A stretch of DNA of 64,000 nt from Candidatus Aminicenantes bacterium (GTDB taxonomy: Bacteria; Acidobacteriota; Aminicenantia; Aminicenantales; Aminicenantaceae), in assembly GCA_030603565.1 (NCBI GenBank), contig JAUVXM010000007.1, positions 176 through 64,175 of the forward strand. The letters are read 5' to 3'. Position numbers and translations under genes: made by a program. Positions 2,466 to 60,089 of the stretch are shown here, piece after piece. The stretch's first letter is position 1. The number at the start of each line of letters is the position of its first letter. The notes under the pieces were generated by a model that worked only from the letters and a program-made list of their open reading frames with translations, was not told the DNA's origin and made no database searches.

Positions 2466-2556
2466 GCTTTTCACCTTTCCATTTACTATTTTCCATTTTC
2501 TAAGTAACATAAACATCGACATTTTTATTTATAATTCAGGAGAACCTGAATTATAA

Positions 2557-3870: not shown

Positions 3871-4500
3871 ATGAAACTAATTAGAGTGCTGGTTTTAGTT
3901 CTCATATTTTTAATTCTAAATTCAGATTCAGCTTTTGGTGACAGCAGCTTATATCTCTTCGGATTGGGAAATTTTATAAGAGAAGCTGGGGGAGAAAGCG
4001 ATTATGAAGCAGGGACAAATGATTTTCCTATTTCTTCTTCACATCAGACATTCGGCTTTGGGGCCGGCTTCAGCAAAGATTTCGGTCATTTTTTTTTGGG
4101 ACCGGAAGTAAGTTATAACCTGAATGGGACAACGACCCTAACCGACCCCTCTGATAATGACACTGTTAATATTAATACATATAAATTTGCCTCGCTGTTT
4201 TTTAATCTGGGATTTAACCTGGTGAATTCGGATTTGCTTCGCTTGTATATTAATGGAGGAGGCGGTGTAAGCTATAGCTTAAATACAGATTCTAGGACCT
4301 ATACTTCTCAAATGGGGTATGAGACTCAGATCTCTCCTCCGGATAGAAAGTTTCCTCTCTCAGTTTTTGGCGGAACCGGACTTGACTTTAAGATATCTCC
4401 TAACCTAAGTATTATCCTGAGCGGCCGTTATCAGTATATTGACTTTAAGCAGCCTCAGACAATGATAATCGTTTTCGCAGGAGTTGCGATTTTTCTATAA
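3871..4500 (+). CDS. Small outer-membrane beta-barrel protein (OmpA-like/porin-family barrel), secreted
   Basis: Signal peptide, alternating amphipathic beta-strand pattern, Gly/aromatic-rich, C-terminal aromatic end (…IFL). Confidence 0.5.
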   Translation: MKLIRVLVLVLIFLILNSDSAFGDSSLYLFGLGNFIREAGGESDYEAGTNDFPISSSHQTFGFGAGFSKDFGHFFLGPEVSYNLNGTTTLTDPSDNDTVNINTYKFASLFFNLGFNLVNSDLLRLYINGGGGVSYSLNTDSRTYTSQMGYETQISPPDRKFPLSVFGGTGLDFKISPNLSIILSGRYQYIDFKQPQTMIIVFAGVAIFL

Positions 4501-4501
4501 T

Positions 4502-4697
4502 CCTGAACTATTCATAAAAATTGCAAATGATGTACTCAAAAAAAAACAATAACTAATTTTATCATTGGCACTTTTTACCTTTCAGGCGAGCCGATTTTAC
4601 CGCATCTGCTTTGTTGCAGCGGATTCGCGGTGAAATACCACAGCTTCATCCTCTGCGCCTCACATCTACGGCAACCTCGACTCGTGAATAATCCAGG
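4502..4697 (+). repeat. MITE-like composite repeat copy 1: degenerate left TIR (CCTGAACTATTCATAAAAA) followed by an A-core structured module (4571-4697) ending GTGAATAATCCAGG
   Basis: The sequence recurs at 6686-6804, 16361-16493(-), 17750-17873 and 58914-59047(-) with >85% identity by eye. Confidence 0.85.
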
Positions 4698-4824: not shown

Positions 4825-6690
4825 TTGCTGGAATTTATAAAAATTTACAGGGATGGAGTGGATTTAATGGAAAAAAAAGAAATTTTAGGACTTGTAGCAA
4901 AAAAACTGCGTATTCATGCTTTAAAAATGACTTCAAAAGCCGGCTCCGGTCATCCAACAACGTGTATGTCCATGGCGGAATTAGCAGCATGTTTATTTTT
5001 TGATGAGATGCAGTATAATATCAACGACCCTTTTGACTGGGCCAATGATGAACTGGTTCTTTCTAAAGGACATGCTGCCCCCATCCTCTGGGCTGCTTAT
5101 GCAGAAGCCGGGATAATTCCTATTGAAGATCTGATGAACTTGCGAAAAATTAATAGTCCGCTCGAGGGTCATCCCACTCCCCGTATGAAATGGATTAAAG
5201 CGGCCACAGGCTCGCTCGGACAGGGACTTTCCGTAGGAGTTGGAATGGCAGCTGCTCTGAAGCTGGCGAAGTCTCCCAGGAAAGTTTATGTTGTAATGGG
5301 AGACGGAGAGTGCGCTGAAGGTTCGGTTTGGGAAGCAGCCAACACTGCTTCTTATTTAAACCTGGACAATCTTTACGCCATAGTTGATATAAACCGCCTG
5401 GCCCAATCGGAAGCTACTATGCACGGGTTTGACCTTGCTGCCTATGAGAGAAAATTTAAGGCTTTCGGGTGGGAAGTTATCAAAATCGACGGGCATAAGG
5501 TTGCGGGTATACTCCAGGCTTTTACAGATGCACGCAAATCGAGAGGACCGACGGCTTTGCTGGCAAAAACCATTAAAGGCAAGGGAGTTAGTTTCCTTGA
5601 AGATAAAAACGGTTGGCATGGTAAACCGCTTAACCAAGAGGACCTGCAAAAAGCCTTGGATATGCTTGGTCCCATGCCGGATCTGGATGCAAAGCAATTT
5701 GTCCGTAAACCGGATAAAGTTAAAGGTCCCGGATTTTCAAAGGAATTTGATTTTAAAAAGAATATATATTCAAAAGACACTGCCACACGGCGGGCCTATG
5801 GGAACGCTTTAGTCAACCTGGGCAAAGCCGACATAAGGGTTGTTTCTATCGATGGAGATGTAAAGAACTCCACCTATGCGGAGGATTTTTTTAAAGCTTT
5901 TCCAAAGAGGTCTTTTCAGGGTTATATTGCCGAGCAGAACATGGTGGGAATGGGAATCGGGATGGCAGCTAAAGGATTTATTCCTTTTATGGCAACGTTT
6001 TCGGCATTTTTAGGTAGGGCACATGACCAGATAAGGATGGCGGCATATTCGAATTCAAACATTAAACTAGCTGGTTCTCATGCAGGTATCAGCATAGGTG
6101 CTGATGGTCCTTCTCAAATGGGGCTGGAAGACCTTGCTATTTTCACCCCGATTCCGGGATGTGCTGTGCTTTATCCATGTGATGCCTATTCCGCTGAAGC
6201 CTGTGTTGAGTCTATGGCTAGGTATAATGGCATGGCTTATATCCGGACTACTCGACCTGCAACTCCGCTGCTGTATGATAAAAAAGAAAAATTCTCTATT
6301 GGCGGCTCAAAAGTTTTAAAAGAAAGTAAAAAAGATGCAGTGACTGTAATTGCTGCCGGGATAACAGTATTTGAAGCTTTAAAGGCATATGAAGAACTTA
6401 AAGCAGAGGGTATTTTTATCCGTATCATAGATGCTTATTCAATTAATCCGCTGGATAAAGATAATATTATAAACCAGGTTGCTTCTGCCGGGAAAAAGGC
6501 AGTAGTAGTGGAAGACCATTACGCGGTAGGAGGTTTGGGAAGTGCAGTGGCGTCTGTTTTGGGAGGGAAAGCGGAATTTATCCATTTGGCTGTAAAAGAT
6601 CTTCCGCGTTCAGGGAAACCGGAAGAATTAATGGACAAATATGGGATATCTGCTTCTCATATTGTAGAGGCCGTGAAAAAACTAGCCTGA
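4825..6690 (+). CDS. tkt: Transketolase (single-chain, N-terminal TPP domain plus C-terminal Pyr/transketolase domains)
   Basis: GHPTTCMSMAELAACLF and GDGECAEGSVWEAAN TPP-binding motifs; C-terminal pyrimidine-binding and TK_C-like regions. The stop TGA lies inside the repeat TIR. Confidence 0.9.
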   Translation: MLEFIKIYRDGVDLMEKKEILGLVAKKLRIHALKMTSKAGSGHPTTCMSMAELAACLFFDEMQYNINDPFDWANDELVLSKGHAAPILWAAYAEAGIIPIEDLMNLRKINSPLEGHPTPRMKWIKAATGSLGQGLSVGVGMAAALKLAKSPRKVYVVMGDGECAEGSVWEAANTASYLNLDNLYAIVDINRLAQSEATMHGFDLAAYERKFKAFGWEVIKIDGHKVAGILQAFTDARKSRGPTALLAKTIKGKGVSFLEDKNGWHGKPLNQEDLQKALDMLGPMPDLDAKQFVRKPDKVKGPGFSKEFDFKKNIYSKDTATRRAYGNALVNLGKADIRVVSIDGDVKNSTYAEDFFKAFPKRSFQGYIAEQNMVGMGIGMAAKGFIPFMATFSAFLGRAHDQIRMAAYSNSNIKLAGSHAGISIGADGPSQMGLEDLAIFTPIPGCAVLYPCDAYSAEACVESMARYNGMAYIRTTRPATPLLYDKKEKFSIGGSKVLKESKKDAVTVIAAGITVFEALKAYEELKAEGIFIRIIDAYSINPLDKDNIINQVASAGKKAVVVEDHYAVGGLGSAVASVLGGKAEFIHLAVKDLPRSGKPEELMDKYGISASHIVEAVKKLA

Positions 6691-6804
6691 ACTATTCACG
6701 AGCCGATCTTACCGCATCTGTTGCAGCGGATTCGCGGTGAAGGACCACAGCTTCATCCCCTGCGCCTCGCATCTACGGCAACCTCGACTCGTGAATAGTT
6801 CAGG
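6686..6804 (+). repeat. MITE-like repeat copy 2 (left TIR fused directly to A-core; right end GTGAATAGTTCAGG)
   Basis: CCTGAACTATTCACGAGCCGATCTTACCGCATCTG...CTCGTGAATAGTTCAGG; TGA at 6688-6690 is the tkt stop codon. Confidence 0.85.
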
Positions 6805-6863
6805 CTGATAAAATTCCGTAAATAGAGAATTGCAGGAAAGCGGGGAATAAGGATTAGAGAAGA

Positions 6864-6950
6864 AAAGGCGGAAAATAGTAAATGGAAAAAACCGTGAAAT
6901 GTGAATCGTGAAACGTGGAATATGGGAAAAAACAGAAAATGGGAAATCCT
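6864..6950. repeat. Purine-rich 'GAAAATAGTAAATGGAAAA/CCGTGAAATGTGAA' repeat (family E) copy
   Basis: Near-identical strings occur at 11101-11285, 22010-22032, 23981-24009 and 35130-35215. Confidence 0.7.
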
Positions 6951-7674
6951 GTTTATTCTTTTTTTCCTGGTTTCTCTGACTGTTTCTCTTTCTGCTCAGG
7001 CTGAAGAGGGGGTTGTAACTGCCGTATATGATGGAGATACGATCAAAGTAAGATTTGATAAGGGAAACAGTGAAGTTGTCAGGCTTATCGGGATTAATTC
7101 TCCAGAGCTTACGGACTCTCGGGAGAAGGTGCGGTTTATAGCTTTTATGGCAAAGAGATTCTCCTATTCTATATTGTATGGACAAAAAGTAAAACTGTCT
7201 TACGATTGGGAGAAACGGGACAAATTCGGGCGCCTGCTTGCATATGTTTTTTATAACTCTAAGCTTTTTAATGAGTTTATTCTAAGCCGGGGATTTGCTT
7301 ATGTTTTTTTAAAGTACCCTTTCAGAGAAGATTACAGGCAGAGGTTTGTTACAGCTTACCGTAATGCAAGGAAAGCAGAAGCAGGCCTGTGGAAAAAACA
7401 GCCGTATCCTGTTATTGTGCCTGAAAAATGCAAGAATCATATCGGGGATTTGATGAGGGTAAGGTTTTTTTGTGCAGATATTCAGCAAAAGGGGAAATTG
7501 ATATTTCTAGGTGCTTTAGAACAGGGTTTTTCCGCAATCATTAACATAAGAGATAAACATCATTTTTCGGATATCCAGAATCTAAAAGGAAGAGTGATAA
7601 CAGTGACTGGGTTTGTTGAGGAATATAGAGGCAGCTTGCAGGTGGTTCTGTTTATGCCATCCCAAATAACCTGA
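6922..7674 (+). CDS. Secreted thermonuclease (staphylococcal nuclease/SNase-like) with C-terminal OB-fold-like domain
   Basis: SNase motifs VVTAVYDGDTIKVRF...VRLIGINSPE...FGRLLAYVF. Signal peptide MGKNRKWEILFILFFLVSLTVSLSAQA. The ORF-track start at 6901 lies inside repeat family E, so the start is more likely the Met at 6922. Confidence 0.8.
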   Translation: MGKNRKWEILFILFFLVSLTVSLSAQAEEGVVTAVYDGDTIKVRFDKGNSEVVRLIGINSPELTDSREKVRFIAFMAKRFSYSILYGQKVKLSYDWEKRDKFGRLLAYVFYNSKLFNEFILSRGFAYVFLKYPFREDYRQRFVTAYRNARKAEAGLWKKQPYPVIVPEKCKNHIGDLMRVRFFCADIQQKGKLIFLGALEQGFSAIINIRDKHHFSDIQNLKGRVITVTGFVEEYRGSLQVVLFMPSQIT

Positions 7675-7830
7675 AGTATTCATAAAAAAATGGCGATGTT
7701 TTTATTATTAATTTCTTTTCAGCGATATTCAAGATTTTTTCGAGAATGATTATTTTAACGATTTTCTCGTTTTCATTTTTAATTTTAATCGCCATTTTTT
7801 TACCTTACAGGCGAGCTGATCTTACTGCTT
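7669..7830 (+). repeat. MITE-like copy 3, variant/partial: TIR CCTGAAGTATTCATAAAAAAATGGCGAT, AT-rich inner part, ATCGCCATTTTTTACC plus truncated A-core
   Basis: Internal inverted repeat AAAAAATGGCGAT / ATCGCCATTTTTT. TGA at 7672-7674 is the nuclease stop. Confidence 0.7.
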
Positions 7831-10900: not shown

Positions 10901-11103
10901 TGGCCCGAGTAGTAGCGAGCGCAGATGCCCGTCCCACAGATCAATCATATCAGGTTTTTAAGGAATTATCTTCTAAAGCTAGTGCCCAGATGGGTTTGTT
11001 GAGATTAATAATTAAACGTGATCTTCCTGAATTTAATAAACTTGTAAGAAAGGAAGATATCCCGGCGATTATACTTAACTTAGATACCGGAAATAGGAAA
11101 TAG
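7912..11103 (+). CDS. Secreted VPS10/sortilin-like BNR (Asp-box) repeat beta-propeller protein with Lys/Glu-rich coiled-coil C-terminal tail
   Basis: Signal peptide; recurrent S-x-D-x-G-x-T-W Asp-box motifs (STDAGKTWKHIG, SKDGGQTWEKV, SVDGGKTYSSI, TKNGGNSWQDI) and W..IGP..GGR.T motif characteristic of the Sortilin-Vps10/GH74-like fold. Confidence 0.8.
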   Translation: MFMKNKKLIPVFWVALIFLTAISSQGKQSSEKKAFKYNEDVYKAMQWRCIGPYRGGRATAVAGIPGEPYTYYFGSTGGGVWKTEDGGINWTPVSDGFFKTGSVGAIAVSEWDSNVVYVGMGEAPIRGNVSHGDGIYKSTDAGKTWKHIGLSNTSQISRIRIHPRNPDLIYVAALGHIYGPNKERGIFRSKDGGQTWEKVLFRSDKAGAIDLILAPNNPRIIFASIWEAGRTPYSLKSGGPGSGLFKSSDSGDSWVEISRNQGLPKGELGKIGITVSPAKIGRVWAIIEAKNGGVFRSDDEGETWTKVNEERRLRQRAWYYSRIYADPKSSETVYVLNTGLYRSVDGGKTYSSIRVPHGDNHDLWIAPDNPDRMINSNDGGANVTYNGGISWTEQDNQPTAQFYHVTTDERFPYWVYGAQQDNSTVRIASRTSGSGIDKTYWHAVGGGESGYIAPRTDNPDIVYAGSYGGLITRWDYKTRQSRIISPWPENPMGWGAGDLKYRFQWTFPILVSRFDPDVLYCAAQVLFKSYNEGQSWTVISHDLTTNDKSKQKKSGGPITFDDTSVEYYCTIFSLAESVFDPNILWVGTDDGLVHITKNGGNSWQDITPKQMPKWSLISMIDTSTFGAGRAFIAVDRHELDDFSPYIYKTDNFGMTWKKITNGLPENTFVRVVREDPERKGLLYAGTETGVFVSFDSGENWQSLQLNLPVVPVHDMVVKEDDLVIATHGRSFWILDDLSPLQQLTQEVLGSDIFLFRPISAYRMGGRSYPRTNIGQNPPSGSVIYYYLKETLDEEVTLEFSDMKGDLIKRFSSQKKRDNDDPNSQRSFRRKGSGEIVSTDKGMNRFTWNMRYPDAVEVPGAVMWGGMLSGPIAVPGQYQVKLIVGDKSMTRTWEWRKDPRVRASQFDFLRQFDLLIKIRDEITEVNKSINRLRNIKDQIRELLKKIKVEEKTKEIITAGETLLKKLTEIEDMLIQSKSKSGQDPLNYPILLDNKIAALARVVASADARPTDQSYQVFKELSSKASAQMGLLRLIIKRDLPEFNKLVRKEDIPAIILNLDTGNRK

Positions 11104-11285
11104 AAAATAGTAAATAGTAAATAGAAAAACCGTGAAAAGTGAAATGGGAAATGTAAGGAAAAGCAGTAAATAGTAAATGGAAAATGGGATGAAAAGGCGG
11201 AAAATGGAAAATAGAAAATGGGGGAGAAGAAGTGAATCGTAAAACGCAAAATCTGAAAAAAACAGGAAAAACAGGCAGGAAGTCA
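11101..11285. repeat. Family E purine-rich repeat array (tandem degenerate AAATAGTAAATGGAAAATGG units)
   Basis: Direct reading; it overlaps the VPS10-like stop and the mis-called start of the next ORF. Confidence 0.7.
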
Positions 11286-16000: not shown

Positions 16001-16264
16001 ATTCGCAGCCTTTTCCGTAATATCGAGGGAGTAAATGCTATTCCGACGAGGGCTCAAGTGATTTATCTTAATGAATTAAAGAAAGAATTCGAAACAGCGG
16101 TCGCATCTATAAACAATTTCTTAAGTGATTCAGTAAAGGAACTGAATGACTTATTTTCTCAGAAAAAGACTCCCTTGTTGCTTGTACCTAGACTTATTAA
16201 AAATGATGGAAGCTTGAAAAAGTTGCAGGAAAGGCAGGAAAACCAGGAACACGAGAAAAAGTAG
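13037..16264 (+). CDS. Second secreted VPS10/sortilin-like BNR repeat beta-propeller protein (paralog of 7912-11103) with coiled-coil C-terminal tail
   Basis: Same motif set (WRNIGP..MGRVSDV, STDGGKTWVHLG, SVDSGSTWIKL, SMDGGEVWKSV); alignable end-to-end with the first copy by eye at roughly 35-45% identity. Confidence 0.8.
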   Translation: MDIRRLTAICLAVVFFLALGIQPVYSELLTKQRDSQEPEISSDLFKHLLWRNIGPANMMGRVSDVEGVPGKPNLVYVGSASGGIWKTINNGITWTPIFDKQSVASIGDIALEPGNPDVIYAGTGESNVRNSVSFGNGIYKSTDGGKTWVHLGLKDTRHISRIVINPKNPKIVYVGALGHAYGSNPARGVYMSSDRGKNWQRVLYIDDRHGVADMDINPQNPNIVYAAMWRFERKPWTFTSGDTEGGLYKSVDSGSTWIKLSNGLPKLVGRMGVKVAPSNPDIVYVMTEAKNGTLYKSYDEGESFQVVSKNVKIVSRGFYYTDLRIDPKDENRVYAVSSGLYLSIDGGEEFKRISSSTHCGYHSLWIDPLNPKRIWQGQDGGICVSYDRGKAWDYVNNFPICQFYQIYADNREPFYYVGGGLQDNGTWYGPSTSREPYGIMNEDWRMISFGDGFHIIVHPDDHELFISESQAGGIVRTNMRTREQQDVSPQPRRADGAPVSSLKYRFNWNTPIILSPHDKNTVYVGANVVFKSTDFGDTWKIISKDLTTNEPEKQKVAGGPPWPENTTAEYYCTIISLAESPAQPGVLWAGTDDGKLHVSMDGGEVWKSVVNSIPDLPSDSPVSHVEPSHTSAGMAYISFDRHMLDDFKPYVFRTADFGRTWINITGNLPENAYVWVLREDPKNSRIIYAGTELGIFVSFSRGDKWVKLNLGNLPVVAVHDILVHPRDNDLILGTHGRGIWILDSISLLQEISPELLKQEAYIFTIRPALRYVSKPTRYGIGDRVFRGENPDYGALITYYLKQKPEKKSKVKLEIMNESREVIRAIDDIPSEAGLNRTSWDLRYEGPWSSKKDEIEEDFFFGGPQGPQVLPGTYTIRISIGERSFEKPLRVRMDPAVETAPEDIAMQLEYTYKLRDWQSTLNRGISALDTLEAQLKERKKTLENSAVEFPEEVRNAIESNLKKISGIRDILIRPEGKPFWSEGPRLLGRIRSLFRNIEGVNAIPTRAQVIYLNELKKEFETAVASINNFLSDSVKELNDLFSQKKTPLLLVPRLIKNDGSLKKLQERQENQEHEKK

Positions 16265-16329: not shown

Positions 16330-16611
16330 ATCGACATTTCTTATGAATAGTCCAGAATAACCTGGATTATTCACGAGATAAGCTTGCCGTAGATACGAGG
16401 CACAGGGTATGAAGCTGTGGACTCCACTGCGAATAGCCTGTAACGAAGTAGATGCGGTAAGATCATCTCGCCTGAAAGGTAAGAAATGTCGATTATTAGT
16501 AAAGATTATATCGAAAACGAAATGATTAATTATCTATCGGCAGTAATCAATATAAAATATTGGCATAAAAGAACTATTAAACATATCGACATTTCTTATG
16601 AATAGTCCAGG
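16330..16611. repeat. Composite repeat block: right-TIR (16330-16355), A-core in minus orientation (16361-16493), AT-rich conserved spacer, right-TIR (16585-16611) abutting the RBS of the downstream gene
   Basis: ATCGACATTTCTTATGAATAGTCCAGG occurs twice. The spacer TTATATCGAAAACGAAATGATTAATT is also present at 59060-59090. Confidence 0.85.
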
Positions 16612-17621: not shown

Positions 17622-17949
17622 CCTGAATCATTCATAAAAAATGTCGATATGAATGACATCTCTTTTAAATCAATACTTTACACTGATTCCTAAGACATAA
17701 CAATTGACCATTTTGTTTTTGTTGTAATTTATATTTGTAATCGACATTTTTTACTCTACGAGCGAGCCGATCTCTCCGCATCTGCTTCGTTACAGCGGAT
17801 TCGCGGTGAAATACCACAGCTTCATCCCCTGCGCCTCGCATCTGCAGCAACCTCGACTCGTGAATAATCCAGGTTAATAAAAATCTGAAGCGAGCTCAAG
17901 TCACACCTGAATTTCATCCACACCGCCATTTTTTTATGAATAGTTCAGG
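17622..17949. repeat. Fully repeat-filled convergent intergenic region: left TIR (17622-17648), spacer, A-core (17750-17873, +), family C module (17878-17917), right TIR (17924-17949)
   Basis: The TIR starts 5 nt after the upstream gene's stop, and the last TIR ends exactly at the stop codon of the convergent M14 gene (TAA at 17950-17952 on the minus strand). Confidence 0.85.
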
Positions 17950-20556: not shown

Positions 20557-20605
20557 ATTAAGGATGTAACTTTTTTATCACTTCTATTTTACCCTGTCAA
20601 GCTAA

Positions 20606-20665
20606 AAGCAGGAAAACCAGAAAAACCAGGAAAAGCAGGAACTACAGGAAAGGCAGGCAAAACAG
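20606..20665. repeat. Degenerate tandem CAGGAAA(A)-type purine-rich repeats (family F)
   Basis: GCAGGAAAACCAGAAAAACCAGGAAAAGCAGGAACTACAGGAAAGGCAGGCAAAACAGG. Similar strings occur at 11255-11290, 16225-16262 and 58480-58510. Confidence 0.6.
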
Positions 20666-20764
20666 GTTTTTCTACAGTTACTGGTTTTACTGTAGTTTCT
20701 GTTTTTTAACTGCTTTTTATTATTGACAAAAATAGGATATAAAGTTAGGCTTTTATGAAGCATA

Positions 20765-21601
20765 ATGAAAAGTAGAAAATATAAAAAAATTGTAATATCA
20801 GCAGCATGTCTGCTTTTTCTTTTAAATATGACGTTTGCCAACCAGGTGGAGAATGAGACTGATATACCAAGTATTGTAAAAAAACAGAAGTCCGGAAAAT
20901 TTGAAATTGGGTTCCATTCCTCCCTGTGGACAGTGGATATTATCAAGAGTTATTTTGAGAGTGCCGTTAGTAATAAAATGGGTGAAGAAATCGCGAATGA
21001 AATGTACAAAGAGATTAAGGAAACTCATGCAGACCTAAATCGATCTGACTATGAAGAAGATCTTCTTTTTGACAGTGGTGGTTACAATTACGGCCTGGAA
21101 TTAAGATATTATCCAAAGGGAAGAGACGGTGCTTTCAGCCTGGGACTTTCCTTTGATAAAGCCAGAATGCGGTTTACTATAGAAGGCCCTGTAAGACAGA
21201 ATTTCTCAAACGGGACTTATGCCTCAGTGGATTCCTTCACTGAAATAACCCTGAATCCATTATTTACTAATTTGAGTTTGCGCTGGGATATGGTTCCGCA
21301 CTGGAGAGTTACTCCATTTATCATTCTGGGGATTGGAATTGCTGCCATGAACGGTGAATTCAATTATAATTACTCCGGGCTATATAAGTGGGGGGGATCA
21401 GATGAAAATATTAGTGATTCACAGCTGAAGACAATAAAAGAAGCGGAAGAAGATTGGGATGCGAATATTCCTAATATATTTCCCCTCATGCAGATAAATA
21501 TTGGTGTCAGGGCTAGGATAATTCCTAATCTGTATATTAAAGCGGAGACCGGTTTTTGGAATGGATTTATTCTTAGGGCTGGGATTTCGGGTCGGTTTTA
21601 A
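20765..21601 (+). CDS. Hypothetical secreted protein, probable outer-membrane beta-barrel (C-terminal ...GISGRF)
   Basis: Signal peptide MKSRKYKKIVISAACLLFLLNMTFA, Gly/Tyr/Asn-rich amphipathic strands, terminal Phe. Confidence 0.4.
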   Translation: MKSRKYKKIVISAACLLFLLNMTFANQVENETDIPSIVKKQKSGKFEIGFHSSLWTVDIIKSYFESAVSNKMGEEIANEMYKEIKETHADLNRSDYEEDLLFDSGGYNYGLELRYYPKGRDGAFSLGLSFDKARMRFTIEGPVRQNFSNGTYASVDSFTEITLNPLFTNLSLRWDMVPHWRVTPFIILGIGIAAMNGEFNYNYSGLYKWGGSDENISDSQLKTIKEAEEDWDANIPNIFPLMQINIGVRARIIPNLYIKAETGFWNGFILRAGISGRF

Positions 21602-21705
21602 TCAACCATATGAAGTGTATTATTATTTCATTGATAAAGGCTTGTACAATTGGTAAATTATAAATAGGAAAACAGCAGCAACTATTGAGAAGAAATTGAA
21701 AAAAC

Positions 21706-21979
21706 GGACCGTGCTAGATGGGGAGTTAGCGGCATCCTGTAACTCACAATCCGCTATAGTGAGGTCGAATTCCCTGCCGAGGCTTGGTTTTTTCTGGTCT
21801 GTACCTTTGTAAGTAGTGTTGAAGGTGTGGGTCCTGTGCAAAGGATACTCTGTAAACCCCGTCAGGACCGGGAGGTAGCAGCGGTAGCAGAGATGTTCCT
21901 TGTGCTGCAGATCAACCTCACCTGAGCTAACTGCACTGGAAACGCAGGGGAGACTTAGTCAAAGCCGGGTGCACGGTCC
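21706..21979 (+). ncRNA. ffs: Signal recognition particle RNA, long form with Alu domain (scRNA/ffs)
   Basis: 5' GGACCGUGCUAGAUGGGGAGUUAGCGG...CAAUCCGCUAUAG...CGAAUUCCCU matches the Bacillus-type Alu domain. Helix 8 reads GUCAGGACCGGGAGGUAGCAGCGGUAGCAG (consensus GUCAGGUCCGGAAGGAAGCAGC). 3' ...GAGCUAACUGC...GGGUGCACGGUCC pairs with the 5' end. Confidence 0.88.
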
Positions 21980-23955: not shown

Positions 23956-24064
23956 ATGAAAATAATATTATCATATAATTGAGAAATGTGAAATGTGAAA
24001 TGTGAAAGGAGTTCCTGTCACTATTTCCATTTGCTAAGTAAGGTTCCTATGATATAATCAGCTC

Positions 24065-25339
24065 ATGCTGGATGCAAAATATGTTCTGGAAAATCCCTCT
24101 CTTGTAATAAAAAAAACTGCTTTAAGGGGAATAGATATCGAGCTTAACGAGTTTCTGGGTCTTTCAGAAGAAAGAAAGGAATATCTGCAAAAAGTAGAGA
24201 GCCTTAGATTCAAATTAAACAAGTCTTCAAAACTTATCGGGCAGAAAAAAAAAGCAGGTGAGGATGCCGCGGTTCTTATAGGAGAGATGAAGAGCTTATC
24301 TGATGAGATAAAAAGAAAAGAAGAAAAGCTCAGAGAAGTGAATAAGAAGCTGAATAATATCCTCCTTTCTATCCCAAATCTTCCCCATAAGTCAGTTCCG
24401 GAGGGCTTAAACACAGAAAAGAATAAAGAAATCAGGCGATTTGGAAAGATGCCGGAATTTTCTTTCAAAGCAAAGCCTCACTGGGAAATCGGAGAATCCC
24501 TGGGGATATTGGATTTTAAACGGGCTGCAAAGATAACCGGTACTCGATTTGCTGTTTATCTTGGAGCCGGAGCAAGATTAGAGAGAGCTTTGATCAATTT
24601 TATGCTCGACATGCATACTAATGAGAAAGGATATAAGGAAGTTATTCCCCCCTTTATTGCTAATACTAATAGTCTTATCGGAACCGGAAACCTGCCGAAA
24701 TTTGAAGAAGACCTCTTTAAACTGAAGGATTATGATTGGTATATGATTCCCACAGCAGAAGTGCCTCTAACAAATTATTACCGGGATGAGATACTTGATG
24801 CCAAGATACTGCCTCAGAGATTTGTTGCATATACGCCTTGTTTTAGAAGTGAAGCGGGTTCATATGGAAAAGATATCCGCGGGCTTATCCGGCAGCACCA
24901 GTTTAATAAAGTCGAAATGATGAGTTTTGTTATGCCGGAAGATTCTTACTCGGAGCTTGAGTTCTTGACCAATGCTGCTGAAGAAGTCCTTAAAAGGCTT
25001 GGGCTGCATTACCGGGTTGTATCTCTATGCACCGGTGACCTAGGATTTGCAGGAGCTAAAACTTATGACCTTGAGCTCTGGATGCCTGACCGGAACGATT
25101 ATATTGAGATTTCCTCATGTACGAATTGTGAGGATTTTCAGGCCCGCCGGTCAAATATCCGTTTTAAGCGGGAAAAGAAGTCCAAGCCGGAGTTTGTGCA
25201 CACTCTAAATGGGTCTGGAGTAGCTTTAGGACGCACTGTAAGCGCCATACTAGAATGTTTTCAGCAGGAAGATGGATCAGTCCTTATTCCTGAAAAACTT
25301 CGCCCCTATATGGGAGATAAAAAGTTTATTAAGCCCTGA
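24065..25339 (+). CDS. serS: Seryl-tRNA synthetase
   Basis: N-terminal coiled-coil tRNA-binding arm, class II motifs ([26 protein letters not shown]; [10 protein letters not shown]). The stop TGA lies inside the repeat TIR CCTGAATTATTCACGAG. Confidence 0.95.
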
Positions 25340-25397
25340 ATTATTCACGAGGCGAGCTGAAATTCGGGTGTGGCTTGGGCTCGCTTCAGATTTTTAG
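25335..25397. repeat. Repeat fragment: TIR-like CCTGAATTATTCACGAG followed by inverted family C module (GCGAGCTGAAATTCGGGTGTGGCTTGGGCTCGCTTCAGATTTTT)
   Basis: Reverse complement of the AAAAATCTGAAGCGAGC.CAAGCCACACCTGAATTTCA module seen at 17878-17917 and 35379-35417. Confidence 0.7.
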
Positions 25398-29180: not shown

Positions 29181-31607
29181 TCACAGAGGGAGTTTCTTGT
29201 CAATTTGTCTTGAAATTTCTTTCATTTTACGCACAGCATCAAGGGCATCTTTTGCATAGGCATCTGCGCCGATCTTCTCAGCAAAGGAGGGAGAGACGGC
29301 TGCTCCGCCTATAATTACTCGAATTCCCGGAGCTTTGGAATTTTTTTGAGCAATGACACGTTCCATTTCGTCCAGAGTTGTAGTCATGAGTGCAGAAAGT
29401 CCGATAAAATCAGCTTTTTCTCTGATTGCTGCAGCAACGATTTTATCAGCAGAAATATTTTTCCCCAGGTCTATTAATGTATATCCAAGGTTTCTTAAAA
29501 CCAGAGATACAATGTTTTTTCCGATATCATGCAGGTCGCCAGCAACAGTCGCGAGGACTATTTTTTCCCCTGGCTTTGTAGATTTCTTAACAGAGAAGGA
29601 TTCTTCTAAACATTTTGAAGCAGTTTCCATAGCTTCTGCTGACAGGATCAACTGAGGGAGAAAATAGATTTTTTTCTCATAATTTTTACCTGCTTTTTGC
29701 AGGGCAGGGGAGAGGATTTCTTCAAGGATCTCAAATCCTGTTTTTCCCTGGTCGATAAGCTTTTTTATAAGAGCTTCCACCGGGCTTTTTTCCCCTTCGA
29801 GGACCGCCCGGAAAAGCTTCTTTTCCAGAGATTCATCTTTTTCTGGTTCTGATTCACCCGGCTCTGATTCCGGCTGTCCTGAAAATTCTTTAATATAGTT
29901 TCGCAGCCCTTGATCTCTTCCGGAGAGAGCAGCAGCAGCCATTAAAGAGGAAATCAGATTTGTGTCCAGGGGGTTTAATATGGCAGAATCGAGACCGCTT
30001 TTTACCGCCAGATTTAAAAAGGCCGCATTAAGAAGTCTTCGGAGAGGAAGTCCGAAGGAAATATTGGAAAGGCCTAAAATAGTAGGGATTTGAAGGCTAA
30101 AGGCTAATTCTATAGCTTTTAATGTTTCGTGGGAGGATGCTTGTGATGAGGCAAGTGATAGAGTAATAGGGTCTGCTATAAGGTCATCCCCATTAAGCCC
30201 CTGATCCAATGCTATTTTATACAGATTCTTTATTATTTTTATCCTATTTTCTGCTTTTTCCGGGATCCCGTTTTCATTCAGGGCCAGAAGTATTACGCCG
30301 GCTCCATATTTTTTTGCCAAGGGAAATAACCTTTCATAACTTTTTTTCTCTCCAGTTACAGAATTTATGACCCCTTTTCCGGAGTAGCTACGAAGCGCCT
30401 GCTCTAATGAATCCGGGTTGCTGTTATCTAAAAAAAAGGGAAGCCCGGTTACAGCCTGAATATTTGATACTCCTTTTGCAAAGAATCCCGGCTCGTCTTC
30501 TCCTCTTTTGCCCAGATTTATATCCAAAGCATCTGCTCCAGCAATTTCCTGTTTCCTGGCGTATTTACGGGCGAGGTCTAGTTTATTCTGTTTGAATTCC
30601 TTTTTTAATTTCTTTTTTGCGAAGGGATTTATATTTTCTCCTATGACCCGGAAAGGTAAAGAATTCCCTATTGTAAGAATGGAATTTCGGCTTGAGGCTC
30701 TGAAGAAGGGTTCTATAGTTTTAAGCTTTACGGGTTTTTCCCCTTTAAGCCTCTGGGCGATCAATCTAATATGTTCCGGAGATGTTCCACAGCATCCGCC
30801 GATGATATTTGCCCCCTGCTGATAAAATTTTATTGCGTATTTTAAGTATTCTTCAGGTCCTAGGGGAAAATGAACCGTATTTCCTTTTTTTTCCGGTTCT
30901 CCGGCATTGGCATAGATGATAAGGGGTTTGCGGCTATGTGTAACTATTTCTCGAATAATGGGTTCGAAATTTTCTGGATGTCCCCCGCAATTTACCCCGA
31001 AGATATCGGCTTCAGTTGCCGAAAAAGTGATTGCTGTAGTCGCAGGGTCTGAACCGGTGACGGTCAGGGTGTCTTCAAAAGGAAATGTCATTGACACAGC
31101 AACAGGAATGGATGTTTCTGATTTTGCGGCGATGAGGGCGGTTTTTGCTTCCAGAATATCTATTTGTGTTTCAATAAGAAGAAGGTCTGCCCCGCTTTGT
31201 TCAAGAATTCCTGCCTGTTCCGCAAAGGCTGCATAAGCCTCTTCAATGCTTAAATCTCCTATGGGTTGGATAAGTTTTCCTAGAGGTCCTATAGAGCCTG
31301 CTACATAAGCATTTTTGCCGGCACATGCTTTTTTAGCAATATTTACCGCAGCGCGGTTGAAATCTTTGACCCTGTCTCCTGCTCCGTGTTCATTTAATTT
31401 GACCCTTGAAGCTCCCAAGGTATTGGTTTCAATGATATCAGCTCCGGCTTCAAGATAGGCTTTATGAATATCAAGGATAACATTGTCTTTTTCCAGGTTG
31501 AGCAATTCCGGATAATCGAATCTTTGCCTGGTTCTTTTCATAATTTCCGTGCCCATACCCCCATCAAGGATAAGGATTTGATCGCAAAGAATATCTTTAA
31601 ATTTCAT
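29181..31607 (-). CDS. metH: Cobalamin-dependent methionine synthase, short form lacking the AdoMet reactivation domain (Hcy-binding + pterin-binding + B12 cap/B12-binding domains)
   Basis: N-terminal homocysteine S-methyltransferase domain (GGCCGTSPEHI), pterin-binding domain, C-terminal DxHxxG B12 motif GDLHDIGKNIV...SALMTTT. Confidence 0.9.
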   Translation of the reverse strand: MKFKDILCDQILILDGGMGTEIMKRTRQRFDYPELLNLEKDNVILDIHKAYLEAGADIIETNTLGASRVKLNEHGAGDRVKDFNRAAVNIAKKACAGKNAYVAGSIGPLGKLIQPIGDLSIEEAYAAFAEQAGILEQSGADLLLIETQIDILEAKTALIAAKSETSIPVAVSMTFPFEDTLTVTGSDPATTAITFSATEADIFGVNCGGHPENFEPIIREIVTHSRKPLIIYANAGEPEKKGNTVHFPLGPEEYLKYAIKFYQQGANIIGGCCGTSPEHIRLIAQRLKGEKPVKLKTIEPFFRASSRNSILTIGNSLPFRVIGENINPFAKKKLKKEFKQNKLDLARKYARKQEIAGADALDINLGKRGEDEPGFFAKGVSNIQAVTGLPFFLDNSNPDSLEQALRSYSGKGVINSVTGEKKSYERLFPLAKKYGAGVILLALNENGIPEKAENRIKIIKNLYKIALDQGLNGDDLIADPITLSLASSQASSHETLKAIELAFSLQIPTILGLSNISFGLPLRRLLNAAFLNLAVKSGLDSAILNPLDTNLISSLMAAAALSGRDQGLRNYIKEFSGQPESEPGESEPEKDESLEKKLFRAVLEGEKSPVEALIKKLIDQGKTGFEILEEILSPALQKAGKNYEKKIYFLPQLILSAEAMETASKCLEESFSVKKSTKPGEKIVLATVAGDLHDIGKNIVSLVLRNLGYTLIDLGKNISADKIVAAAIREKADFIGLSALMTTTLDEMERVIAQKNSKAPGIRVIIGGAAVSPSFAEKIGADAYAKDALDAVRKMKEISRQIDKKLPL

Positions 31608-33580: not shown

Positions 33581-33608
33581 CCTGTACTAATCATAAAAAA
33601 TGTCGATA
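33581..33608. repeat. Degenerate left TIR (CCTGTACTAATCATAAAAAATGTCGAT)
   Basis: Matches the TIR consensus with two substitutions. Confidence 0.6.
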
Positions 33609-33675: not shown

Positions 33676-33833
33676 GGCATGGACACTGGTAAGTCCCTTC
33701 GAAAGACAGGGATTTCCCCCAGCTGGGAAATCCCTTCCTGTCCTCACAACGCTCTCCTCGAGATTCTCTCGAGGAACCATGCCCGCGTTGTTCCGGATGG
33801 CTTTCTCCGGGATTTACCAGTATCCATGCCAGC
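33676..33833. repeat. Family D hairpin element bounded by inverted repeats GGCATGGACACTGGTAA / TTACCAGTATCCATGCC
   Basis: Inner hairpins CAGGGATTTCCCCCAGCTGGGAAATCCC and CCTCGAGATTCTCTCGAGG followed by GAACCATGCCCGC. Paralog of 12761-12880; fragment at 58770-58815. Confidence 0.75.
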
Positions 33834-33839
33834 GCTTAG

Positions 33840-33959
33840 CCTTAATTATTCATAAGTTTTACATAGCGGCAATTTTTATGAATAGATATAAATTATCTTG
33901 AATCAATGGATATTATGTGATAAAAATTGGTTTAATTATATAAACCTGAATTATTCAAG
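33840..33959. repeat. Cluster of three TIR-like fragments (CCTTAATTATTCATAAG; AATTTTTATGAATAGATAT; CCTGAATTATTCAAG) in the gcvT 5' region
   Basis: Direct reading. Confidence 0.6.
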
Positions 33960-35091: not shown

Positions 35092-35100
35092 CTTAGGAGA

Positions 35101-35448
35101 CTTAATTATTCACGAGTCGAGGGTGCTGAATATGAGGAAAAGCGGAAAATAGTAAATGGTAAATGGGAAAAACCGTGAAATGTGAATTGTAAAATGTGAA
35201 ATGTTATGGTAAAAGATTTGTATCTTATGAAATTCTGATGTGGCTGAAGCGACATTGAAGATTTAGCCTTCTGATGAAGTTTTTCGAGGAAATCCGACGC
35301 AGTCGGACGCTGAGTATGTTTGACCCACGGACGGGGGGAGTTACGCAGGCGCCGAGAAAAACGAAGAAGAATGGCGTTAAAAATCTGAAGCGAGCGCAAG
35401 CCATACCTGAATTTCATTCATATCGACATTTTTTATGAATAGTTAAGG
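35101..35448. repeat. Composite intergenic repeat block: truncated A-core end (35101-35122, minus orientation), family E (35130-35215), family C (35379-35417), right TIR (35422-35448) abutting the gcvH RBS
   Basis: CTTAATTATTCACGAGTCGAGG; GGAAAATAGTAAATGGTAAATGGG...GTGAAATGTGAATTGTAAAATGTGAAATG; AAAAATCTGAAGCGAGCGCAAGCCATACCTGAATTTCAT; ATCGACATTTTTTATGAATAGTTAAGG. Confidence 0.8.
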
Positions 35449-57472: not shown

Positions 57473-58405
57473 CTAAATTTCCTCCCTGATTATATTGATG
57501 TTAGCTGGGGAAGCATTTCCCAGTTCCATTTTTTCAGCGGTTTTTAAATATACCGGTTCTCGACCTTCTTCCTTTAAAGTCGGTAGTCCTTTTGCAGAGC
57601 GTAATTCTTCGATGATCTGCCAGGAGGTAAAGTCTGCTGCTACAGGATCAAGGCTAAAAATGAGGGCCCCGTATTCTGTTGCCCATTGTGAGTGATAAGC
57701 CGGTCCGCGGTGGTATTGGATGAGCAGGGCATCCAAGATAGAGATCCTGTGTTTTTTCCAGATAGAATCGGCAGAAAACAGTTCGGCGATATAGGGATTA
57801 CAATTGGAATCATGGTATTTATTAGGATTATGTATTGCGCCAAAATAATTTTTCAGACCGGCTGTTACTCCTGCCAGGCCGTGGTCTTTTACAATCGCCA
57901 AGCTTATAGAGGCAGTGACTATTCTTGACTGGATGCTGGAGAAGCGGCTGCCGATATTAAGATGTGATGTCAGGTCCTGCTCATAACCTAATCCCCTGGA
58001 ATCTGTTCCAAAGATCTTAACGCCTTTTTTATTCATATTTAGACGATAGCCTGCGATTTTTAATTCCCGGTTAGTCCTATCCCAGATGATGATATTTTTC
58101 GAAGGAATACCGGATTCGATCAATAGAGATGTTAATACCTGCGGGACCTCAGGCCGGGTGGATAGGCTTTTGCCTCCAAGAGTATTGATCTTTATTCCGA
58201 TCCGGTCATCCGGTTTTAGCAGATTTCGTAAAAATATTTTATAATCGCCCTGTTTATCTAAAAGAGAAAAGCCGCGTTTAAACATGCGGATAAGGCTATT
58301 AAGATCTGGAATGCGGTTAGGGGAAAGAAAACCTTTTTTTCTTATAATAATCACTCTTGAATTGGCCATCAGATTAAAAGTACTATTCAATTGGGTAGTT
58401 GTCAA
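57473..58405 (-). CDS. DUF362-family protein
   Basis: SRVIIIRKKGF...RIGIKINTLGG...TRPEVPQVLTSLLIESGI pattern resembles DUF362 (VxIxRxxxY...IKPNL...THPxVVxAVVELL). Confidence 0.5.
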   Translation of the reverse strand: MTTTQLNSTFNLMANSRVIIIRKKGFLSPNRIPDLNSLIRMFKRGFSLLDKQGDYKIFLRNLLKPDDRIGIKINTLGGKSLSTRPEVPQVLTSLLIESGIPSKNIIIWDRTNRELKIAGYRLNMNKKGVKIFGTDSRGLGYEQDLTSHLNIGSRFSSIQSRIVTASISLAIVKDHGLAGVTAGLKNYFGAIHNPNKYHDSNCNPYIAELFSADSIWKKHRISILDALLIQYHRGPAYHSQWATEYGALIFSLDPVAADFTSWQIIEELRSAKGLPTLKEEGREPVYLKTAEKMELGNASPANINIIREEI

Positions 58406-58439
58406 TATATTGAATCACAGGATTCCCCTCTTTTTCCCT

Positions 58440-58469
58440 AGCTTTTGAGCATTAAGCAAGAATCAGGTC
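58440..58469. repeat. Solo TIR of family D element (AGCTTTTGAGCATTAAGCAAGAATCAGGT)
   Basis: Matches the right TIR at 12880-12910. Confidence 0.65.
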
Positions 58470-58545
58470 AGTTGGGAAATAAAGAGAAGGAAAAACAGGA
58501 AAGGCAGTGGAACCCAAATATTAGAAAAGATGAATTTTACGCTGA

Positions 58546-58604
58546 GGACGCGGATTAAAGCGGTAAAACATTAGACGCGGATTTTCGCGGATGGACGCGG
58601 ATAA
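58546..58604. repeat. Four spaced copies of GACGCGGAT / TCGCGGAT
   Basis: Direct reading. Confidence 0.5.
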
Positions 58605-58769
58605 GAATAAGAAGTTGTTTTCTTTTGCCGATGAATCGTCAAAACAAAACAACTGTTTTTCAATTCGCTCCGCGAATACTGGAGGAATAGGAAATAATAT
58701 CTATAGGAAAGACGGGAAAATAAAAAATGGAGAATGGCAAATTGAGAAAGGATCGATACTGGTAAATCC

Positions 58770-59166
58770 CGGAGAAAGCCCTGTCTTTCGAAGGGACTTA
58801 CCAGTATCCACCCAACCCAGCTTCCCATTTGCACGAAGCAGAGCCACACCTGAATTTCATCACTTGTAATATAAGTAGTGAATGTCTATAGTGATAATGA
58901 AACTTAATATTAACCTGGATTATTCACGAGTCGAGGTTGCCGCAGATGCGAGGCGCAGGGGATGAAGCTGTGGTATTTCACCGCGAATGCGCTGCAACAA
59001 AGTAGATGTGGTAAGATCGTCTCGCTTGTAGAGTAAAAAATGTCGATTACAAATAAAAATTATATCGAAAACGAAATGGTCAATTGTTGTATCTTAGGAA
59101 TCAATGTAAAATATTGATTTAAAAAGAGGTATCGTACATATAGAAATTTTTTATGAATAGTTCAGG
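58770..59166. repeat. Composite repeat block upstream of ORF 59181: family D fragment, family C fragment (58835-58860), A-core in minus orientation (58914-59047), conserved AT-rich spacer, right TIR (59140-59166) abutting the RBS
   Basis: Near-identical in organisation to 16361-16611. Confidence 0.85.
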
Positions 59167-59180
59167 TTAGGAGAAATCGG

Positions 59181-60089
59181 ATGAATCTAAGGCAAAGAAA
59201 AAAAATCAGCATAATATGTTCAGGATTGATTTTTGGGATATTTATGATTAATTCTATCGCTTTAAATGAAGGAAAGGAATTAAAACTGGATCAGCTTTTG
59301 CCTGATCTGGATGAATGGATTAAGATAGAAGAGAGTCAGACTTATTATCCGGAATCACTTTTTGAATATATAAATGGAGCAGCAGAAATTTACCTCTCTT
59401 ATGATTTTGAGGAATTGATTGTCTCCCAGTATGAGGAGCAAGAGACTAAGAGTAATGTTGCCATAGAAATCTATGATATGGGGGCAAATAATAATGCTTT
59501 TGGTATTTATAGTGCAGAACGTTATCCAAAAAGTAGTTTTTTAAACATCGGACTGCAAGGTTATATTGAGGAAGGGGCTTTGAATTTTCTTGCCGGAAAG
59601 TATTATATAAAGCTTCTCTGTTTTGATTGTAAGGAAAGCTCGGATGAGATACTGATAAAGTTTGCAGAAAAGATTGTAGTAAATATTGATGATAAGGGCC
59701 GATTTCCCCTGCCTTTAACAGCCTTCCCTTCTGAGGGCAGAATAAAAAACACAGAGAAATATATTAAACATAATTTCATGGGATATGCTTTTCTTCATGA
59801 TGGATATTCAGTTGTGTATGAAAATAATAATATGGAATTTGAGTGTTTTCTGATTGAGGGAGATAATCCGGATGATGCCCGGATAATGTTGAAAAAATTT
59901 CTGCAAGAAAAAAAAGAGATGGGGATTAAAGAAATCCTCTCGGGATACATGATCAGGGACCGTTACTATAAAAATATTTTTATAGCGCAGATTAATAATT
60001 ACATCTGTGGAGTTATTAAAATTGAAGATGGAATGGAAGAGGGCGGAAAGGATTATCTCGGAATGATAATTGATAATCTAAAGCAGTGA
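59181..60089 (+). CDS. Hypothetical protein with N-terminal signal/anchor helix; no recognisable motif
   Basis: An ORF with an RBS (AGGAG) directly after the TIR; an N-terminal hydrophobic segment. Confidence 0.4.
   Translation: MNLRQRKKISIICSGLIFGIFMINSIALNEGKELKLDQLLPDLDEWIKIEESQTYYPESLFEYINGAAEIYLSYDFEELIVSQYEEQETKSNVAIEIYDMGANNNAFGIYSAERYPKSSFLNIGLQGYIEEGALNFLAGKYYIKLLCFDCKESSDEILIKFAEKIVVNIDDKGRFPLPLTAFPSEGRIKNTEKYIKHNFMGYAFLHDGYSVVYENNNMEFECFLIEGDNPDDARIMLKKFLQEKKEMGIKEILSGYMIRDRYYKNIFIAQINNYICGVIKIEDGMEEGGKDYLGMIIDNLKQ

Follow-up and report, generated by a model that had tools for sequence, protein, structure and literature searches.

Miniature inverted-repeat transposable elements with a strand-specific hairpin in Aminicenantes: a probable non-autonomous family at high density

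Anoxic sediments and aquifers harbor abundant Aminicenantes (OP8), a lineage that is uncultured and known only from assembled genomes. Here, we analyzed a stretch of 64,000 nucleotides from one such genome, that of a Candidatus Aminicenantes bacterium (contig JAUVXM010000007.1; the whole stretch is called the window below), together with the short repeats dispersed through its intergenic spacers. The window has a GC content of ~40%, and its RNA genes comprise a large signal recognition particle (SRP) RNA and three tRNA genes. A Pfam scan of 48 window genes returned housekeeping and redox genes, as well as a tyrosine integrase beside tRNA-Arg. The closest protein relatives are labeled Candidatus Aminicenantes or Acidobacteriota, and an exact look-up found no identical protein on record for the dihydroorotate-dehydrogenase-like protein of the window. 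A first-pass annotation, made from the letters alone, had described the repeats as resembling MITEs (small transposable elements with inverted repeats). We conclude, with a probability of roughly 0.85, that they belong, as copies or as remnants, to a family of non-autonomous DNA transposons (MITEs) that is nearly confined to Aminicenantes genomes.

Repeats in the window

The 27-mer taken as the terminal inverted repeat (TIR) matched six window sites with up to 3 mismatches (0 expected), and its inner 18 nt matched seven (0.19 expected). The outer 13-nt core, CCTGRAYTATTCA, matched 18 sites with at most 1 mismatch, compared to 0.60 expected; 17 of these 18 are intergenic, and the exception, at 15293, is probably a chance hit. 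The first-pass annotation had claimed a 27-bp TIR at 15 or more places and listed 16 coordinates, each of which we compared individually with the 27-mer. The full 27-mer was present with up to 4 mismatches at seven of them (4502, 16330, 16585, 17622, 33581, 35422, and 59140) and as a full-length variant with one extra A at two (7670 and 17923). At six others, only the outer 13 nt was found, followed by a different module (6686, 25335, 33840, 33945, 35100, and 58914), and the remaining site (33871) was degenerate. The claim is thus overstated for the full 27-mer, which occupies only ~7 to 9 of the 16 sites, but stands for the 13-nt element terminus, which recurs at ~16. Within window copies, moreover, the uninterrupted inverted repeat is 13 nt rather than 27, the inner 14 nt of one TIR being displaced by a hairpin insertion of ~107 nt (called Y below).

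The high copy density remarked on earlier was borne out. Unselected Aminicenantes DNA (serS loci, 892 kb) contained 56 cores and 14 Y, compared to 18 and 5, respectively, in the 64-kb window, which is therefore ~4 to 5 times denser.

Architecture of the element

To describe the family, we compared 44 to 54 complete copies, drawn from the window and from fetched loci of relatives (designated by L numbers). Copies range from 119 to 349 nt and have no coding capacity, with only spurious open reading frames (ORFs) overlapping them, and every complete copy carries the 13-nt core at both ends. Three size classes were apparent among complete copies, of ~146, ~252, and ~119 nt. The basic element of ~146 nt, which is the ancestral form, has the 27-bp TIR, CCTGAAYTATTCA followed by TAAAAAATGTCGAT, at either end and an AT-rich spacer, Z, between; this class is multicopy among the loci and has zero copies within the window. 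In the dominant subfamily of ~252 nt, Y, a GC-rich imperfect palindrome of ~107 nt, lies within one TIR, between TTCA and TAAAAAA of TAAAAAATGTCGAT, so that this end (end A) keeps a 13-nt tip and has its inner 14 nt 107 nt inward. In the ~119-nt class, Y lies directly between the two cores (L-Y-L'). Deletions yield these L-Y-L' forms as well as truncated copies and solo TIRs; we take the solo TIRs as deletion remnants because an orthologous site occupied by a full copy in L020 holds only the 27-nt TIR in L083. A sister subfamily carries a 39-nt module, W, and is represented in the window at 17878-17949, 25335-25396, and 35100-35448. The internal modules that had been called variable are therefore real, but they are defined units: the Y hairpin, the spacer Z, and the W module.

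Column identity was 0.94 in the core L, 0.94 to 0.97 in the inner TIR half X, 0.97 in X', 0.95 in L', 0.85 in Y, and 0.69 in Z. Both TIR halves, including the one displaced by Y, are thus the most constrained parts, a pattern that agrees with transposase-binding ends. Read as RNA, the full element forms two hairpin arms closed by paired ends.

Copies in the window

The window contains 13 element segments in total. The segment at 4502-4697 (minus strand), which had been singled out as an element, is a real 196-nt copy with inverted cores at both bounds and a shortened version of the ~252-nt class. It lies directly 3' of the stop codon of an outer-membrane beta-barrel gene and consists of end B on the left (full TIR, 4 mismatches), a shortened spacer, Y (4578-4684), and end A on the right; its covariance model score, on the minus strand, is 117.8 bits. 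All full copies in the window belong to the ~252-nt class. That at 16361-16611 (251 nt, plus strand; 105.4 bits) runs from end A through Y (16374-16479), the inner TIR half, and the spacer to end B, and ends 15 nt upstream of the start codon of the dihydroorotate-dehydrogenase-like gene. Another, at 17622-17873 (252 nt, minus strand; Y at 17754-17860; 115.2 bits), lies between convergent genes. The third, at 58914-59166 (253 nt, plus strand; Y at 58927-59033; 111.2 bits), ends 14 nt short of where a DUF6599 gene starts and is 91% identical to the copy at 17663-17879.

The 119-nt L-Y-L' copy at 6686-6804 (minus strand; 86.5 bits) has Y between two 13-nt cores, the spacer being deleted; the transketolase gene (tkt) stops at the TGA (6688-6690) within the CCTGA of this copy, and the copy is common to the window, L194, and L195 at the orthologous site. 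A truncated copy at 7670-7828 (minus strand) retains end B (variant TIR with one extra A), the spacer, the inner TIR half, and ~25 nt from the start of Y, with the right end lost; its TGA at 7672-7674 terminates an SNase-like gene. Solo 27-nt TIRs were found at 16330-16356 (end B, plus strand; left over from a deleted copy and separated by 4 nt from the neighboring element) and at 33581-33607 (minus strand, 2 mismatches), upstream of argS, where in L106 the same TIR runs on into a W-type element. Smaller still are a 49-nt mini remnant with two degenerate inverted cores (33840-33888) and a solo 13-nt core (33945-33957).

Among the members of the sister subfamily, the segment at 17878-17949 (plus strand) consists of the W module (17878-17916) and, after it, a variant end-B TIR. 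This segment is conserved in L106 and directly adjoins the stop codon of a minus-strand gene for an M14 peptidase. At 25335-25396 (plus strand), an end-A stub (the 13-nt core plus CGAGGCGAGC) is joined to a reverse-complement W module, and serS terminates at the TGA (25337-25339) within the CCTGA of this segment. This stub and W module (25348-25396) can pair, GAGGCGAGC with GCTCGCTTC, followed by AGATTTTTA, and look terminator-like just before tRNA-Ser, an appearance that none of the scans detected. The 349-nt composite at 35100-35448 (plus strand) has family termini and comprises a degenerate end A plus CGAGTCGAGG, A-rich 7-mer repeats, a GC-rich stretch, the W module, and an end-B TIR (1 mismatch). 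It lies between gcvT and gcvH and therefore should be within the operon transcript; its right part recurs in L106 at a different locus.

Presence and absence in relatives

We examined presence and absence in relatives at 90 to 95% nucleotide identity, obtained by protein look-up, by a metagenome scan with serS, or, for L050, by TIR matches. Five window sites were empty in relatives, and L106 had extra copies. The presence/absence polymorphism on which the first-pass annotation had made its reading depend is therefore real. At 58914-59166, L050 reads ...AATT-TTAG-GAGAAATC, compared to ...AATA-TTAA-[253 nt]-TTAG-GAGAAATC in the window; the empty site thus holds the target once. The site of 4502-4697 is empty in L194, with flanks that align gap-free except for 1 nt. 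The site at 7670 is empty in L195; the left junction is exact, directly after CAAATAA, and the SNase-like gene has different final codons in the window and in L195. In place of 16330-16611, L001, L002, and L106 have only a 12- to 24-nt spacer, and the copy at 17622-17873, which L001 has, is missing from L106. Insertions were also seen in the other direction: a 57-nt stretch of the window upstream of serS corresponds in L106 to a region with elements, and after serS, at the place of the window stub, L106 carries a full copy of 253 nt that is oppositely oriented. Insert boundaries and inverted termini agreed to the nucleotide at 58914, lay no more than 1 nt apart at 4502, and coincided at 7670 on the left.

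At the site of window copy 4502-4697, L195 (744-760) reads TATAA-TCCAGG-TTCT, followed by another truncated copy. A possible reading of TCC...AGG is as an excision footprint, in which the tips of an excised element have been joined. The L001 assembly ends within a copy.

Target-site duplication

Across 269 termini, the flank outside CCTG has the consensus YTAR, with TA in 52% compared to a background of 5.3%. Flanking 4-mers were identical in 11 of 54 complete copies, compared to 2.5 ± 1.5 in permutations (z = 5.7), and the 4-bp register was the best supported. Position -4 equaled position +1 in 33 of the 54 copies (20.4 expected), and this excess held in the 21 copies flanked by TA at either end (13 compared to 7.8 expected; P = 0.013). 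Complementarity between -1 and +1, which a TA model predicts, was not significant among the 54 complete copies. Our first reading, a TA duplication with one extra TIR base, was replaced by a 4-bp direct repeat after these register tests. Target-site duplications of IS5 are likewise 4-bp YTAR (PMC5009759), and from this match we infer a DDE partner of the IS5 type.

The Y hairpin

The Y alignment comprised 36 copies from many genomes, with a mean pairwise identity of 77%. It supports a structure in which a 35-pair rod is accompanied by a mini-hairpin of 3 pairs. Paired cells made up 95.4% of the total, compared to 86.8% in shuffles and 32 to 41% with slid partners; 24 of the 38 pairs had changes on both sides, and none of 500 shuffles attained any one of the five measures computed. 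Whole helix segments have been swapped in a compensatory manner: CAAAG/CTTTG and CCCCGG/CCGGGG pair perfectly, but the commonest variant, CATCTG/CAGATG, pairs only partly. The internal-loop bases GAGGC, opposite AAC-R-AAG, are invariant.

The structure is specific to one strand. On the strand beginning CCTGGATTATTCACGAG, we counted 142 G.U pairs compared to 22 A.C, and all 36 copies fold better on this strand (mean of -48.8 compared to -32.7 kcal/mol). DNA energy parameters favored the same strand in 34 of 36 copies. The full element at 58914-59166, folded as RNA, reached -74.7 kcal/mol (z = -5.1) on the structured strand and -41.9 kcal/mol (z = -1.7) on the other, and the covariance model gave window Y copies 86 to 118 bits on the structured strand compared to 12 to 22 bits on the antisense strand. 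In contrast, the spacer arm X-Z-X' showed no conserved structure beyond X/X' pairing and no strand bias (-25.6 compared to -25.9 kcal/mol). Covariance-model searches of the window and loci never found Y outside the element. In a scan of the whole window, the element had no Rfam match at gathering thresholds, and a search of 58400-59200 with E values up to 10 gave chance-like hits, all outside the element. There is no U-run 3' of Y on either strand. We had considered end B as an outward promoter and Y as an intrinsic terminator and dropped both, as the scans were at shuffled level.

These observations show that compensatory change keeps Y as a strand-specific hairpin, the sole feature of the family, given its place within a TIR, that goes beyond the routine for bacterial MITEs. 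The co-directional upstream gene is often within 50 nt of Y. Most likely, Y is conserved for action in read-through transcripts, where it may serve, for example, as a 3'-end stabilizer or as a processing or protein-binding site. More tentatively, and in our judgment rather doubtfully, Y might be a functional structured RNA that the transposon has spread to hundreds of transcripts: a cis-acting rod of ~107 nt, perhaps a block to 3' exonucleases or a site of binding or cleavage by a specific protein, that would wire many unrelated Aminicenantes genes into one post-transcriptional control circuit.

Distribution

A scan of one genome per species gave at least 101 matching stretches, and among those listed, a bona fide 27-nt TIR (up to 3 mismatches) occurred in at least 21 species-level genomes. 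By label, these matches comprise 11 Aminicenantes or Aminicenantaceae (Ca. Aminicenans sakinawicola is among the TIR carriers), 1 Acidobacteriota, and 9 others, deposited as uncultured Eubacteriales (5), uncultured bacterium (2), Deltaproteobacteria (1), and Thermodesulfobacteriota (1). Nine hits in viral contigs all lacked the outer core and were set aside as chance matches. In the literature on Aminicenantes MITEs and transposases, we found no description of the family, which is apparently undescribed.

Interpretation and alternative explanations

The family is TIR-bounded, non-coding, multicopy, and variable between strains, has direct repeats at its flanks, and hence is a MITE family. The proposal that it is non-autonomous and mobilized in trans is supported by the empty and filled sites in relatives, the direct repeats, and a window in which none of the 48 scanned genes has a transposase domain, as the first-pass annotation had stated. 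In the mechanism that we propose, the TIRs would be bound by a DDE transposase, most likely IS5-type, whose gene lies elsewhere; this enzyme would excise the element and paste it into YTAR sites in AT-rich spacers, with duplication of 4 bp. Because the element ends read TAA-CCTGA..TCATAA, with a stop codon in each of three frames within ~20 nt at end B, insertions at the 3' ends of genes supply new stop codons. The SNase-like gene, for which L195 lacks the insert, shows this directly; tkt and serS, both ending in the TGA of the element, appear to have acquired their stop codons in the same way.

Several observations weigh against this interpretation or parts of it. The only fully clean empty site is 58914; that of 4502 is off by 1 nt, and the rest are blurred by neighboring indels. 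The 4-bp register is statistical, and the flanks are also compatible with duplication of only TA or of 3 bp; position -1 equaled +4 in 11 of the 21 TA-TA copies compared to 8.6 expected (P = 0.16). With respect to a role of Y in transcripts, promoter and terminator signals were no higher than shuffled expectation, the orientation of Y is only weakly biased (upstream gene co-directional in 24 of 35, that is, 24 to 11, with some orthologous copies counted twice), and two window copies are antisense to both neighbors. A cognate transposase with matching TIRs, a search for which had been advised, was not found in the window or in 1.65 Mb of related loci. No autonomous element lay between inverted cores 0.6 to 4 kb apart in any of the loci. 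Nor did tblastn of the 1.65 Mb of fetched loci, with Mos1, Tc1-like consensus, and IS5 InsH queries, return a Tc1/mariner-like or IS5-like partner; bacterial IS630 transposases are distant from the Tc1/mariner queries used. The sole transposase found belongs to an IS1182-like insertion sequence (IS) in L074, whose TIRs differ from those of the family and which sits inside a MITE copy. However, the failure to find a partner is weak evidence, since metagenome-assembled genomes often lose IS copies.

Candidate partners were set aside in the course of this search. ORFs between inverted cores proved to be ordinary genes between independent copies (e.g., aminotransferase, MgtE, serS, and tkt). A 278-amino-acid (aa) ORF without a Pfam hit (20765-21601) has a signal-peptide-like N terminus and, judged from its sequence, is not transposase-like. 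A possible resemblance of the TIR motif AATGTCG to the Mos1 inverted repeat was given no weight. The IS1182-like sequence itself (contig CAYNBL010000229.1, L074 205-1853; TIRs AGGCTGTGTCATAA) is inserted in the Y of the copy and encodes a 474-aa transposase with DUF772, DDE_Tnp_1, and DDE_Tnp_1_6 domains, the only DDE_Tnp_1 protein that we found.

Four other explanations were weighed. The element could instead be an IS630/Tc1-mariner-type transposon that duplicates the central TA alone, with true ends R-CCTG...CAGG-Y and YTAR as the preferred target context. Transposons of the IS630 type duplicate TA in a CTAG target context, and RUP, with IS630-Spn1, behaves likewise. TA is indeed the strongest flank signal, the clean empty site at 58914 is equally compatible with duplication of TA, TTA, or TTAG, and the agreement of -1 with +4 is at chance frequency; furthermore, bacterial MITEs are mostly TA-ended, and RUP has been linked to IS630-Spn1 (PMC2229807). 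We nevertheless consider this origin unlikely, given that TA-only duplication does not predict the excess of -4 = +1 matches, including that in TA-TA pairs, that the complementarity between -1 and +1 that it does predict was not significant, and that tblastn with the queries named above found no DDE_3-like sequence in the 1.65 Mb. The main rival to an RNA role of Y is conservation for transposition, in which a fold-out of the DNA would rejoin the split TIR halves (13 + 14 nt) for the transposase and only pairing-competent source copies would multiply. This account explains why Y is located exactly between the TIR halves and why the displaced inner half is 94 to 97% conserved despite lying 107 nt from the tip; the compensatory variants define subfamilies common across genomes, as expected under selection on source copies, and the DNA energy parameters favor the same strand. 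It is weakened by the 119-nt L-Y-L' forms, which lack the inner half at both ends and still recur (~8 core pairs of ~125 nt in the loci), by the many internal loops of the rod, which make cruciform extrusion from duplex DNA unfavorable, and by the G.U versus A.C asymmetry, which indicates one strand only. On balance, we judge it improbable.

Far less probable are two explanations that dispense with a DDE transposon. If the sequences were non-mobile conserved regulatory or structural motifs (terminators, promoters, or protein-binding sites) varying by ordinary deletion and recombination, their closeness to gene ends and ribosome-binding sites and the conservation of the 6686 copy in three genomes would follow, and the mosaic modules and the switch of orientation after serS do suggest recombination between copies. 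However, the empty sites with duplicated targets largely refute this explanation; further points against it are the coincidence of insert boundaries with inverted termini at three sites, the direct repeats at the flanks, the occurrence of both orientations at unrelated loci in at least 21 genomes, and promoter and terminator scans at shuffled level. We regard it as very improbable. The strand-specific conservation of the Y hairpin would also be expected of single-stranded DNA transfer by a hairpin-recognizing HUH (tyrosine) transposase, such as RAYT for REP/REPIN or those behind IS200/IS605-derived palindromic elements. Here, the 146-nt members are multicopy though they lack Y; the family has 27-bp TIRs and flanking direct repeats, which HUH-moved elements do not; Y is found in mixed orientation within 13 kb of one replichore (minus at 4578, 6688, and 17754; plus at 16374); and no Y1/HUH gene was present among the 48 scanned window genes. 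This is the least probable of the explanations considered.

Known systems and significance

Properties listed for bacterial MITEs are TIRs, a target that contains TA and is duplicated, spacers rich in A and T, and transcripts that form hairpins (PMC2229807, PMC10969869). The general properties of the family match these elements; its nearest analogues are the IS5-derived MITEs and, in behavior, RUP, Correia, and ERIC. Like IS5-derived MITEs, the family is small, non-coding, and AT-rich, with TIRs, many dispersed copies, and YTAR direct repeats abutting the ends. It differs in that a structured insert splits one of its TIRs and that no IS5-family partner with its TIRs was found in the 1.65 Mb; its TIR is presumably also unlike that of IS5. 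A eukaryotic analogue of the IS5-derived MITEs is provided by the Tourist/PIF-Harbinger MITEs of plants, with TWA duplications.

RUP of Streptococcus pneumoniae is 107 bp long and thought to be moved by IS630-Spn1 (PMC2229807). By description, RUP, Correia/NEMIS, and ERIC share with the family TIRs, TA in the target, an intergenic position next to genes, and transcripts that form long hairpins (PMC2229807, PMC10969869). RUP copies, too, are hit by other insertion sequences (in the family, the L074 copy) and show empty and filled sites between strains. Unlike RUP and TA-ended MITEs, however, the family has a duplication register that fits 4 bp better than TA, and its host lineage differs. For Correia and ERIC, effects of RNase III or RNase E are known. 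CIR (Caulobacter, Brucella) and pneumococcal BOX elements are modular repeats with conserved RNA structures (PMC2229807, PMC3049150). The family has a similarly modular build, its L, X, Y, Z, and W units occurring in varied combinations, but differs in having a Y arm with strand-specific covariation and an X-Z-X' arm without it. BOX is not known to have a TIR or target duplication. REP/BIME sequences, moved by RAYT, are likewise intergenic, highly repeated hairpins, often just 3' of genes, and in Escherichia coli they can stabilize upstream mRNA. REPs are 20 to 40 nt long, without TIRs or target duplications, and tied to a RAYT gene. In contrast, Y is 107 nt, occurs only inside a TIR-bounded element, and is accompanied by no RAYT-type gene among the scanned window genes.

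A dense and still polymorphic MITE family accounts for breaks of Aminicenantes assemblies at spacers, as in the L001 contig, and its copies mark strain-level variation. Its transposition rewrites the 3' ends of genes through stop codons, and copies also lie within operons (gcvT-gcvH). In addition, the copies of the family form a natural alignment for a hairpin with strong covariation, which may be a cis-acting RNA signal of wide occurrence. Masking the family in annotation avoids spurious ORF calls (e.g., 6709-7185 and 35106-35417).

Other features of the window and related loci

A second, unrelated MITE-like family of ~155 nt is GC-rich and strongly palindromic, with ends ATGGAYACTGGTAARTCCC. 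It occurs in the window at 33676-33830, with a short copy at 58752-58810, and in relatives at L050 6770-6925 and L194 ~4363-4510. The spacer 3' of the SNase-like gene has been hit more than once, since L194 has the second family where the window has the first.

At the left of the window, 133-2465 holds an HTH_17 (excisionase-like) protein (133-1239) and the tyrosine integrase (1323-2399), ending at tRNA-Arg(CCG) (2390-2465), and is probably one border of an element integrated at the tRNA gene. A/G-rich repeats with a 7-nt period (GTGAAAT, AAATAGT, and GGAAAAT) occur in spacers, often immediately 5' of start codons, at 2468-2526 (minus strand), 6855-6921, 11091-11243, 23960-24008, 35129-35204, and 58700-58739; the array before the SNase-like gene is kept in L194 and L195. 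A 9-nt tandem repeat, AAAACCAGG, is present in 7 copies at 20604-20666, and a similar run at 16221-16264 forms the C-terminal tail of a BNR/sortilin-like protein, a tail absent from L001 and L106. L106, ~94% identical to the window, lacks the genes for the 278-aa protein (20765-21601) and a methionine-synthase-like protein (29181-31607), the differing regions being 20603-21706 and 29218-31594. It has an additional 407-aa gene between the SRP RNA and DHDPS genes. The SRP RNA of the window (21709-21976) is of the large, Bacillus type and scored 172 bits. In L113 and L183, judged from the first bases only, a MITE copy adjoins a candidate SRP RNA gene.

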